A stretch of 64,000 nucleotides of DNA from Escherichia coli (GTDB taxonomy: Bacteria; Pseudomonadota; Gammaproteobacteria; Enterobacterales; Enterobacteriaceae). Below, in pieces: positions 2,126-6,862 of the stretch (the stretch's first letter is position 1; each line of letters begins with the position of its first letter). The notes beneath the pieces are model-generated. The model searched no databases, was not told the DNA's origin, and worked only from the letters and a program-made list of their open reading frames with translations. The stretch lies in assembly GCF_046105845.1 (NCBI RefSeq), contig NZ_CP151004.1, one strand, 5' to 3'. The translations under genes were made by a program, and so were the position numbers.

Positions 2126-3069
2126 TGAGTCGTCCTCGTCGTCGCGGTCGCGACATTAACGGTGTTTTGTTGCTGGATAAACCGCAGGGTATGTCCAGCA
2201 ACGATGCGCTGCAAAAAGTGAAACGTATATATAACGCCAACCGTGCCGGGCATACCGGTGCGCTGGACCCGCTGGCGACCGGCATGTTGCCGATTTGCCT
2301 CGGGGAAGCGACGAAGTTTTCCCAGTATCTGTTGGACTCCGACAAACGCTATCGGGTCATTGCGCGTCTTGGACAGCGTACCGATACTTCTGATGCCGAC
2401 GGACAAATCGTTGAAGAACGTCCGGTAACCTTTAGCGCAGAGCAACTGGCGGCGGCACTGGATACTTTCCGTGGCGATATCGAACAGATCCCATCGATGT
2501 ATTCAGCACTGAAATACCAGGGCAAAAAACTGTACGAATATGCACGTCAGGGCATTGAAGTTCCGCGTGAAGCGCGTCCGATTACCGTTTATGAACTGCT
2601 GTTTATTCGCCATGAAGGCAATGAGCTGGAGCTGGAAATTCACTGCTCAAAAGGCACTTATATCCGCACCATCATTGATGACCTGGGTGAAAAACTCGGT
2701 TGTGGCGCGCATGTTATTTACCTGCGTCGTCTGGCGGTAAGTAAATATCCGGTTGAACGGATGGTGACCCTGGAACATCTGCGTGAACTGGTTGAGCAAG
2801 CCGAACAGCAGGATATTCCGGCTGCGGAGTTACTTGATCCATTACTGATGCCAATGGACAGTCCAGCTTCGGACTACCCGGTGGTGAATCTTCCGTTAAC
2901 GTCTTCTGTTTACTTCAAAAATGGTAACCCGGTTCGTACATCCGGTGCGCCGCTGGAAGGACTGGTTCGCGTTACAGAAGGTGAGAACGGCAAGTTTATC
3001 GGTATGGGCGAAATTGACGATGAAGGCCGCGTCGCGCCTCGTCGGCTGGTGGTTGAATACCCGGCGTAA
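2125..3069 (+). CDS. truB: tRNA pseudouridine-55 synthase
   Basis: 314-aa ORF; start ATG overlaps the rbfA stop (TAATG); TruB family sequence with the HTGALD catalytic region. Confidence 0.96.
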
Positions 3070-3121
3070 TGTTAACCGTCTTGCGATAACAGGTCGCTAC
3101 GAGTAGAATACTGCCGCTTAA

Positions 3122-3487
<366 letters not shown>

Positions 3488-3499
3488 TTCTTGCGAGTT

Positions 3500-3715
3500 T
3501 CAGAAAAGGGGGCCTGAGTGGCCCCTTTTTTCAAGCTGACGGCAGCAATTCACTGGAAACTAATGTATTGTTGCTATGAATGATCTTCCGTTGCAGAGGT
3601 TCGCGCGGCTAATGAGAGGCTTTACCCACATTGGGCTGGGTTAGGGTTGTCATTAGTCGCGAGGATGCGCAGAAGATCGGGTATTAACACCAGTGCCGTA
3701 AGGTACTGTCTAAGA
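3500..3715 (-). ncRNA. sraG: Candidate antisense small RNA in the rpsO-pnp intergenic region (SraG/PsrO-like); boundaries approximate
   Basis: From memory, a small RNA is transcribed antisense to the pnp leader in this spacer. On the minus strand a TTACGA-N19-TAATAT promoter-like element lies near 3735-3765 and the rpsO hairpin could serve as terminator. Ends are not determined from sequence. Confidence 0.3.
3505..3532. terminator. rpsO intrinsic terminator (symmetrical hairpin, probably bidirectional)
   Basis: aaaagggggcc-tgagt-ggccccttttttc; A-run on one side and T-run on the other so it can terminate either strand. Confidence 0.85.
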
Positions 3716-3733
3716 AAGAGAAAGGATATTACA

Positions 3734-5869
3734 TTGCTTAATCCGATCGTTCGTAAATTCCAGTACGGCCAACACACCGTGACTCTGGAAACCGGCATGA
3801 TGGCTCGTCAGGCTACTGCCGCTGTTATGGTTAGCATGGATGACACCGCGGTATTCGTTACCGTTGTTGGCCAGAAAAAAGCCAAACCAGGTCAGGACTT
3901 CTTCCCACTGACCGTTAACTATCAGGAGCGTACCTACGCTGCTGGTCGTATCCCGGGTAGCTTCTTCCGTCGTGAAGGCCGCCCAAGCGAAGGCGAAACC
4001 CTGATCGCGCGTCTGATTGACCGCCCGATTCGCCCGCTGTTCCCGGAAGGCTTCGTCAACGAAGTTCAGGTTATCGCCACCGTGGTTTCTGTTAACCCGC
4101 AGGTTAACCCGGATATCGTCGCGATGATTGGTGCTTCCGCAGCACTGTCTCTGTCTGGTATTCCGTTCAATGGTCCGATTGGTGCTGCCCGCGTAGGTTA
4201 CATCAATGACCAGTACGTACTGAACCCGACTCAGGACGAACTGAAAGAGAGCAAACTGGATCTGGTTGTTGCGGGTACTGAAGCCGCTGTACTGATGGTT
4301 GAATCTGAAGCTGAACTGCTGAGCGAAGACCAGATGCTGGGCGCAGTAGTGTTCGGTCATGAACAACAGCAGGTTGTTATTCAGAACATCAATGAACTGG
4401 TGAAAGAAGCCGGTAAACCGCGTTGGGACTGGCAGCCGGAGCCGGTAAACGAAGCGCTGAACGCGCGCGTTGCTGCACTGGCTGAAGCTCGTCTGAGCGA
4501 TGCTTACCGTATCACCGACAAACAAGAGCGTTATGCGCAGGTTGATGTCATCAAATCTGAAACCATCGCGACGCTGCTTGCTGAAGACGAAACCCTGGAC
4601 GAAAACGAACTGGGTGAAATTCTGCACGCTATCGAGAAAAACGTTGTTCGTAGCCGCGTACTGGCAGGCGAACCGCGTATCGACGGTCGTGAAAAAGATA
4701 TGATCCGTGGTCTGGATGTGCGTACTGGCGTGCTGCCGCGTACTCACGGTTCTGCGCTGTTCACCCGTGGTGAAACGCAGGCACTGGTTACTGCAACGCT
4801 GGGTACCGCTCGTGACGCACAGGTTCTTGATGAACTGATGGGCGAACGTACCGACACCTTCCTGTTCCACTACAACTTCCCTCCGTACTCCGTAGGCGAA
4901 ACCGGCATGGTCGGTTCTCCGAAGCGTCGTGAAATTGGTCACGGTCGTCTGGCGAAGCGCGGCGTGCTGGCAGTAATGCCGGATATGGACAAATTCCCGT
5001 ATACCGTACGTGTGGTGTCTGAAATCACTGAATCCAACGGTTCTTCTTCTATGGCTTCCGTGTGCGGCGCGTCTCTGGCGCTGATGGACGCAGGTGTGCC
5101 AATCAAAGCTGCCGTTGCGGGTATCGCAATGGGTCTGGTGAAAGAAGGCGACAACTACGTTGTACTGTCTGACATTTTGGGTGACGAAGATCACCTGGGC
5201 GATATGGACTTCAAAGTTGCGGGTTCCCGCGACGGTATCTCTGCATTGCAGATGGATATCAAAATTGAAGGTATCACCAAAGAGATCATGCAGGTTGCGC
5301 TGAACCAGGCTAAAGGTGCGCGTCTGCATATCCTGGGCGTAATGGAACAGGCGATCAACGCGCCGCGTGGCGATATCTCTGAGTTCGCACCGCGTATCCA
5401 TACCATCAAGATCAACCCGGACAAGATCAAAGATGTTATCGGTAAAGGCGGTTCTGTAATCCGTGCTCTGACCGAAGAAACTGGCACCACCATCGAAATC
5501 GAAGATGACGGTACTGTGAAGATCGCAGCGACCGACGGCGAGAAAGCGAAACATGCTATTCGTCGTATCGAAGAGATCACTGCAGAAATCGAAGTGGGCC
5601 GCGTCTACAATGGTAAAGTGACCCGTATCGTTGACTTTGGCGCATTTGTTGCCATCGGTGGCGGTAAAGAAGGTTTGGTACACATCTCTCAGATCGCTGA
5701 CAAACGCGTTGAGAAAGTGACCGATTACCTGCAGATGGGTCAGGAAGTACCGGTGAAAGTTCTGGAAGTTGATCGCCAGGGCCGTATCCGTCTGAGCATT
5801 AAAGAAGCGACTGAGCAGTCTCAACCTGCTGCAGCACCGGAAGCTCCGGCTGCTGAACAGGGCGAGTAA
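3734..5869 (+). CDS. pnp: Polynucleotide phosphorylase (PNPase), with non-canonical UUG start
   Basis: 711-aa product beginning (M)[20 protein letters not shown] at a TTG codon; the 740-aa ORF 3647..5869 is a 5' over-extension into the leader; RNase PH domains, KH and S1 domains recognisable. Confidence 0.95.
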
Positions 5870-5977
5870 GGTTGCCATTTGCCCTCCGCTGCGGCGGGGG
5901 GCTTTTAACCGGGCAGGACGCCTTGTTAGCAACCGGGAACAGGACGTTCATTCAACCGTGGTCTTCGGGAGTGGGAA

Positions 5978-6862
5978 ATGAAGCCTTTTTTGCGCTGGTG
6001 TTTCGTTGCGACAGCACTTACGCTTGCAGGATGCAGTAATACTTCCTGGCGTAAAAGTGAAGTCCTCGCGGTACCATTGCAACCGACTTTACAGCAGGAA
6101 GTGATTCTGGCACGTATGGAACAAATCCTTGCCAGTCGGGCTTTAACCGATGACGAACGCGCACAGCTTTTATATGAGCGCGGAGTGTTGTATGATAGTC
6201 TCGGTCTGAGGGCATTAGCGCGTAACGATTTTTCGCAAGCGCTGGCAATCCGACCGGATATGCCTGAAGTATTCAATTACTTAGGCATATATTTAACGCA
6301 GGCAGGCAATTTTGATGCTGCCTATGAAGCGTTTGATTCTGTACTTGAGCTTGATCCAACTTACAACTACGCGCACTTGAATCGCGGGATCGCATTATAT
6401 TACGGCGGTCGTGACAAGTTAGCGCAAGATGATCTGCTGGCGTTTTATCAAGACGATCCCAATGATCCTTTCCGTAGTCTGTGGCTTTATCTCGCCGAGC
6501 AGAAGCTCGATGAGAAGCAGGCTAAAGAAGTGTTGAAACAGCACTTCGAAAAATCGGATAAGGAACAGTGGGGATGGAACATTGTCGAGTTCTACCTGGG
6601 CAACATTAGCGAACAAACGTTAATGGAAAGGCTCAAGGCGGACGCAACGGATAACACCTCGCTCGCTGAGCATCTCAGTGAAACCAACTTCTATTTAGGT
6701 AAGTACTACCTAAGTCTGGGGGATTTGGACAGCGCCACGGCACTGTTCAAACTGGCGGTTGCCAACAACGTTCATAACTTTGTTGAGCACCGATACGCAT
6801 TGTTGGAATTATCGCTCCTGGGCCAGGACCAAGATGACCTGGCAGAATCGGACCAGCAATAG
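5978..6862 (+). CDS. nlpI: Lipoprotein NlpI (TPR-repeat outer-membrane lipoprotein)
   Basis: 294-aa ORF with lipoprotein signal peptide and lipobox LAGC at residues 16-19. Confidence 0.96.

Follow-up and report, generated by a model that had tools for sequence, protein, structure and literature searches.

The minus strand of the rpsO-pnp intergenic spacer of Escherichia coli almost certainly encodes the known cis-antisense RNA SraG (PsrO), which is transcribed from a weak promoter, ends at a terminator that it shares with rpsO and represses pnp, the gene for PNPase. The spacer was analysed within a window of 64,000 nucleotides, by which we mean the whole stretch of DNA under study. The identity, ends, promoter, terminator and mechanism of SraG are all already known and were published in 2016 (Fontaine et al., 2016; PMC5029454). 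In this study, identity, coordinates, structures and conservation were established by sequence analysis, the literature supplies the start site, the promoter mutagenesis, the regulatory effect and the mapped 3′ ends, and the exact -35 element and the P2 start position are deduced. Expression and function of SraG in the present strain are presumed by transfer from K-12 strains, on the strength of sequence identity.

Many complete E. coli chromosomes share 100% identity with the region from 3400 to 3850, as do 5408 of the 5425 matching records at a level of at least 99%. Alignment of the window to MG1655 3310900-3312100 allowed an exact coordinate conversion, anchored at the pnp start (MG1655 3311168 = window 3734) and at the end of the rpsO stop codon (MG1655 3311415 = window 3487); the features are collected in Table 1. 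The spacer differs from that of K-12 MG1655 at two positions only, 3632 (T for A) and 3634 (G for A), which are located within the apical loop of the hairpin formed by the pnp leader and, on the other strand, by SraG; the predicted stem is unaltered. The remaining eleven differences in the aligned stretch all lie upstream of 3046, in truB. Elsewhere in the window, Rfam matches were obtained upstream of truB for naRNA4 (RF02564; 1582-1652, plus strand; 78.7 bits, gathering score 59.5) and at 48599-48975 for bacterial RNase P RNA class A (RF00010; plus strand, 318.6 bits). All of pnp is overlapped on the opposite strand by an open reading frame of 740 codons (3710..5932, minus strand); nothing marks it as a gene, and its length equals that of the extended plus-strand frame 3647..5869 by coincidence.

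Table 1. Features of the rpsO-pnp region, in window coordinates and, where converted, in those of K-12 MG1655.
Feature	Window	Strand	MG1655	Description and basis
S15 autoregulatory leader	3160..3274	+		RF00114, 117.6 bits against a gathering score of 39.5; upstream context
rpsO CDS (ribosomal protein S15)	3218..3487	+	3311415..3311684	stop TAA 3485-3487; ORF list
rpsO-pnp intergenic spacer	3488-3733			Escherichia coli window
Bidirectional intrinsic terminator (rpsO T1 = sraG T)	3504..3531	both		sequence, folds, minus-strand scan call, PMC5029454
SraG (PsrO) primary transcript	3504..3719	-	3311183..3311398	216 nt, antisense to pnp leader; RefSeq ncRNA sraG (b4449)
RF00082-covered part of SraG	3504..3675	-		cmscan; near the older 174-nt annotation
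pnp P2 transcription start	3575..3579	+		approximate, deduced
pnp leader stem-loop R (RNase III processing hairpin)	3599..3666	+		complement is the SraG core hairpin; folds
pnp Shine-Dalgarno GAAAGGA	3720..3726	+		sequence
sraG -10 box TAATAT	3726..3731	-		between pnp Shine-Dalgarno and UUG; identical to K-12
Candidate sraG -35 TTACGA	3751..3756	-		within pnp codons 6-8; 3/6 match to TTGACA, 19-nt spacer
pnp CDS (PNPase, 711 aa)	3734..5869	+	3309033..3311168	UUG start; ORF and translation

A covariance-model search of positions 2500-6500 returned two matches, SraG (RF00082) and the S15 leader (RF00114). The SraG match reached 162.2 bits (gathering score 50; E = 9e-31) and covered the full model (1-177). 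It occupies 3504-3675 of the minus strand, in the gap separating rpsO from pnp and opposite in strand to both; an Rfam search of the whole window agrees on SraG. The RefSeq sraG gene extends 44 nt beyond the Rfam match at its 5′ end (3676-3719), and 214 of the 216 bases of MG1655 b4449 are identical in the window, with mismatches at 3632 and 3634 only. An earlier note on this DNA, made from the letters alone, had proposed an RNA antisense to the pnp leader that ends at the rpsO hairpin, had matched it to SraG/PsrO and had named an Rfam search as a check. The above-threshold minus-strand match and the RefSeq coordinates (3719..3504) bear out both the RNA and its name, and the synonym is confirmed by the label psrO that Gordon et al. 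(2017) give to the locus. K-12 SraG has the same locus, strand, ends, -10 box, terminator and flanking genes, and differs by the two substitutions in the central hairpin's apical loop. Small RNAs likewise lie opposite the rpsO-pnp junction, or opposite or beside pnpA, in Listeria (RliD) and Enterococcus (ref41); unlike SraG, they have no pnp-directed function shown, and no sequence similarity is reported for them (PMC5029454).

The 3′ end of SraG coincides with the rpsO terminator. A stem of six GC pairs, GGGGCC (3509-3514) with GGCCCC (3520-3525), closes a TGAGT loop (3515-3519) and is flanked by AAAA at 3504-3507 and TTTTTT at 3526-3531, so the hairpin with A and T runs on both sides is present as had been described. 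It folds on both strands, at -22.8 kcal/mol (plus) and -16.3 kcal/mol (minus) in contexts of about 50 nt and at -19.9 and -15.7 kcal/mol, respectively, for the 36-nt core, and each strand carries a U-tract downstream of it (TTTTTT on the plus strand, CTTTTCT on the minus strand). That such a hairpin can terminate transcripts from either strand, as was suggested from the sequence, agrees with the report that the "same bidirectional terminator" serves rpsO (as T1) and sraG (as T) (Fontaine et al., 2016; PMC5029454). Most SraG 3′ ends map to this terminator and monocistronic rpsO mRNA ends at T1, with some read-through of SraG reported (PMC5029454). A consensus terminator scan called the minus-strand site (3525..3509, tail CTTTTCTGAA), and the plus-strand rpsO terminator was absent from the calls of the same scan. 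On our reading, the plus-strand site was missed because the T run, being paired with the A run, is counted as stem and leaves no tail; we regard the missing call as a limit of the tool that does not argue against termination. Bidirectional intrinsic (Rho-independent) terminators between convergent transcripts likewise place one GC-rich hairpin between an A run and a T run, but the two directions are unequal here: on the plus strand the stem is extended and six U follow, and on the minus strand the stem has a mismatch at its base and is followed by a C and four U. Across the Enterobacterales loci listed, the GGGGCC/GGCCCC stem and the A-rich 5′ and T-rich 3′ flanks are kept and the loop varies; the comparison covered 90 nt after the rpsO stop, which is too short for most Erwinia and Pantoea loci and makes those rows uninformative.

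On the plus strand, rpsO and pnp are transcribed from P1, with transcripts stopping at T1 or reading through, and pnp has its own promoter, P2, downstream of T1 (PMC5029454). A consensus promoter (TTGCGA-17-TAGAAT, 3081-3109, plus strand) lies upstream of the S15 leader and fits rpsO P1; it was the sole call in a consensus promoter scan of 3050-3950. RNase III cleavage of hairpin R at two sites opens a decay pathway dependent on PNPase and RNase E, and translation of pnp is further controlled by CsrA and by the competition of PNPase with S1 (PMC5029454). The two cuts, RIII1 and RIII2, are placed 39 and 77 nt from the P2 start (PMC5029454), and the resulting distance of 38 nt fits the hairpin pairing table. 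RNA-seq puts an RNase III site at MG1655 3311286, equivalent to window 3616 (Gordon et al., 2017). Taking RIII1 as P2 + 39 together with the peak at 3616 and the pairing table, we infer a P2 start near 3577. The hairpin at 3599-3666, the peak at 3616 and the UUG codon all match the described leader control of the rpsO-pnp operon by an RNase III hairpin, PNPase autoregulation and CsrA, and the two loop substitutions are the sole sequence difference from it. The pnp reading frame opens at TTG (3734-3736) with LNPIVRKF and maps to the RefSeq start at MG1655 3311168, in agreement with the UUG start assigned in the earlier note. The note had also taken this codon as consistent with autoregulation of PNPase. 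The start is real, but UUG itself is no evidence for autoregulation; the latter runs, by the account in PMC5029454, which cites the primary work, through RNase III leader cleavage, PNPase, CsrA and S1 competition.

The case for the sraG promoter owes little to its sequence. TAATAT (3731-3726) ends 7 nt upstream of the annotated SraG 5′ end at 3719, which is the spacing expected of a -10 box. Matches to consensus number three of six in the -35 and four of six in the -10, and the spacer of 19 nt is non-standard. The consensus scan of 3050-3950 called neither the sraG promoter nor pnp P2, and 1877 sites equal to or better than the sraG motif are found on the two strands of the 64-kb window. The motif alone is no better than chance, and the sequence by itself would not justify a promoter call; its credibility derives from external evidence, and mapped ends were preferred to the motif. 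Mutation of the -10 box eliminates the 216-nt SraG and cuts the shorter forms ninefold (PMC5029454). The published mutation lies near the pnp Shine-Dalgarno but does not overlap it (PMC5029454), a description that is fitted by 3726-3731, beside GAAAGGA at 3720-3726. An older mutation that reduces PNPase autoregulation also sits in the sraG -10 box (PMC5029454). Thus the minus-strand TTACGA-N19-TAATAT singled out from the letters is present, and its two halves fare differently: the -10 box, placed accurately to the base, is upheld by the mapped 5′ end that it adjoins and by the published mutagenesis, and the -35 is a weak candidate. A longer transcript predicted to start 339 nt upstream of the sraG promoter could give residual SraG signal (PMC5029454); in a consensus scan of 3950-4250, no promoter was called near the corresponding site (~4058, minus strand).

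The regulatory effect is documented for K-12. SraG is fully complementary to the pnp leader and represses pnp by antisense pairing, which stops beside the Shine-Dalgarno without overlapping it (PMC5029454). Full-length SraG removes the 30S toe-print on pnp and lowers pnp expression, whereas a form without the first 42 nt does neither, and the SraG-pnp duplex gains new RNase III cuts (PMC5029454). In the sraG promoter mutant, pnp mRNA and PNPase rise about 1.3-fold, so that the reported physiological effect is small; SraG is poorly expressed, and no phenotype was found when it was overexpressed (PMC5029454). Applied to the window, SraG would begin at 3719 from its weak promoter, with the -10 between the pnp ribosome-binding site and the UUG, span the pnp leader for 216 nt and stop at 3504, past the rpsO terminator hairpin, whose U-tract on each strand would allow termination both ways. 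The 5′ end of the RNA would pair right beside the Shine-Dalgarno and block 30S binding, and the duplex with the leader would create new RNase III sites, with PNPase synthesis modestly lowered as the outcome. SraG would then form an extra layer over the main controls of pnp, namely decay by PNPase and RNase E after RNase III cleavage of the leader, CsrA-mediated repression and the competition of PNPase with S1.

A scan of species-representative genomes with a 19-nt core pattern gave at least 120 loci, nearly all in Enterobacterales, and the genera among the loci listed range from Escherichia to Photorhabdus, Serratia, Pantoea, Yersinia, Edwardsiella and Budvicia. Of the at least 120 pattern matches, we discarded two as chance, one in a Hyphomonadaceae MAG and one in a Burkholderia contig, since neither rpsO nor pnp lay close to them. 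In each of the nine species sampled (eight genera), RF00082 scored above threshold on the strand opposite to rpsO-pnp. Among the matches listed, the TTG start occurs at every one of the 116 loci with a pnp N-terminus, and the complement of the pnp Shine-Dalgarno is highly conserved (90-99% at 3722-3725). In Symbiopectobacterium, Serratia marcescens, one unlisted species and Budvicia (loci L053, L069, L088 and L034), the pnp start lies 30-100 nt further from the core than it does in E. coli; these species therefore have extra leader sequence.

The E. coli hexamer TAATAT is present in 35 of 107 distinct sequences among the matches listed, with Escherichia, Citrobacter, Salmonella, Photorhabdus and Serratia marcescens among its carriers; in its place, Klebsiella oxytoca has TTCTAT, Enterobacter cloacae TTCTGT and Pantoea ananatis TCAAAG. 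Within the candidate -35, the most variable positions in the matches listed, 3754 and 3751, are third-codon positions of pnp. Because -35 conservation follows the coding constraint of pnp, it has no independent weight. Just upstream of the -10, a minus-strand TG (3732-3733) is found in E. coli and a few relatives, and about 88% of the distinct sequences listed have AA. Together with the complement of the UUG, this AA yields CAAAAT, which resembles a -10 hexamer and lies 5 nt further upstream than the E. coli box; E. coli has CAATGT at that place.

The central hairpin bears on whether SraG itself is under selection. The R stem is nearly perfect and folds at -36.0 kcal/mol in the pnp sense against -21.2 kcal/mol in the SraG sense in the window, and the means across the sequences listed are -35.9 and -20.2 kcal/mol. 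The pnp-sense fold is the more stable in 107 of 108 distinct sequences among the matches listed, by about 15 kcal/mol; G-U pairs on the plus strand turn into C-A mismatches on the minus strand. This bias over 3599-3666 points to selection on the plus-strand structure and suggests that much of the conservation of the SraG family may mirror constraints on the pnp leader. Carried to its end, the argument would make the minus-strand RNA a by-product with little or no selected function, conserved for the sake of the rpsO terminator and of the leader hairpin and translation start region of pnp. We think this unlikely, although the stability bias, the unconserved -10 hexamer of Klebsiella, Enterobacter and Pantoea, the chiefly synonymous variation of the -35 and, from PMC5029454, the low expression, slight PNPase change and silent overexpression of SraG all lean towards it. 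A mere by-product would not be expected to show the specific block of 30S binding and lowering of pnp expression by the full-length but not the truncated RNA, nor would a mutation weakening PNPase autoregulation be expected in its -10 box (PMC5029454). The A-rich flank needed for minus-strand termination is also conserved, though the same flank extends the plus-strand stem.

The preferred reading is, then, that SraG is a functional antisense regulator of pnp in E. coli. It is conceivable, and we put it forward tentatively, that E. coli-type SraG is narrower than the Rfam family, with the core kept mainly by the pnp leader hairpin and the rpsO terminator, and with Klebsiella, Enterobacter and Pantoea either lacking SraG or using another element, such as CAAAAT. 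A mainly trans-acting SraG, with other mRNAs as its targets, as reported for Yersinia pseudotuberculosis, and the effect on pnp secondary, is very improbable: several strategies gave no other targets in E. coli (Fontaine et al., 2016; PMC5029454), and the Yersinia targets are described there as without homologues outside that genus.

Hardly any credence attaches to a real SraG that begins at about 3675-3677, as in the 174-nt annotation, with the promoter some 45 nt upstream a chance motif: the Rfam model does stop at 3675, the motif is statistically unremarkable and SraG was first reported as a 174-nt RNA (Argaman et al., 2001, as cited in PMC5029454), but RefSeq now gives 216 nt with the 5′ end at window 3719, the -10 mutation abolishes the long form as well as depleting the shorter ones, and polyphosphatase treatment places the primary 5′ end 42 nt upstream of the older annotation, for a transcript of 216 nt (PMC5029454). 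Northern blots show bands of about 215 and 190 nt, and cRT-PCR gave no clones at the old 5′ end, the Northern and cRT-PCR data coming from strains N3433 and MG1655 (Fontaine et al., 2016; PMC5029454). For K-12, the published cRT-PCR data led us to reject the 174-nt start as the true start of SraG. The point has a practical side, as the Rfam model and older annotations omit the 5′ 44 nt (3676-3719). This is the part that matters for regulation, because the control RNA without the first 42 nt fails to regulate pnp (PMC5029454).

As a discovery, SraG in this window carries little weight. The cross-species comparison raises a small question, namely how widely a functional sraG promoter is conserved beyond the Escherichia-like group. 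For E. coli, the locus is a textbook case of layered post-transcriptional control of a major exoribonuclease.
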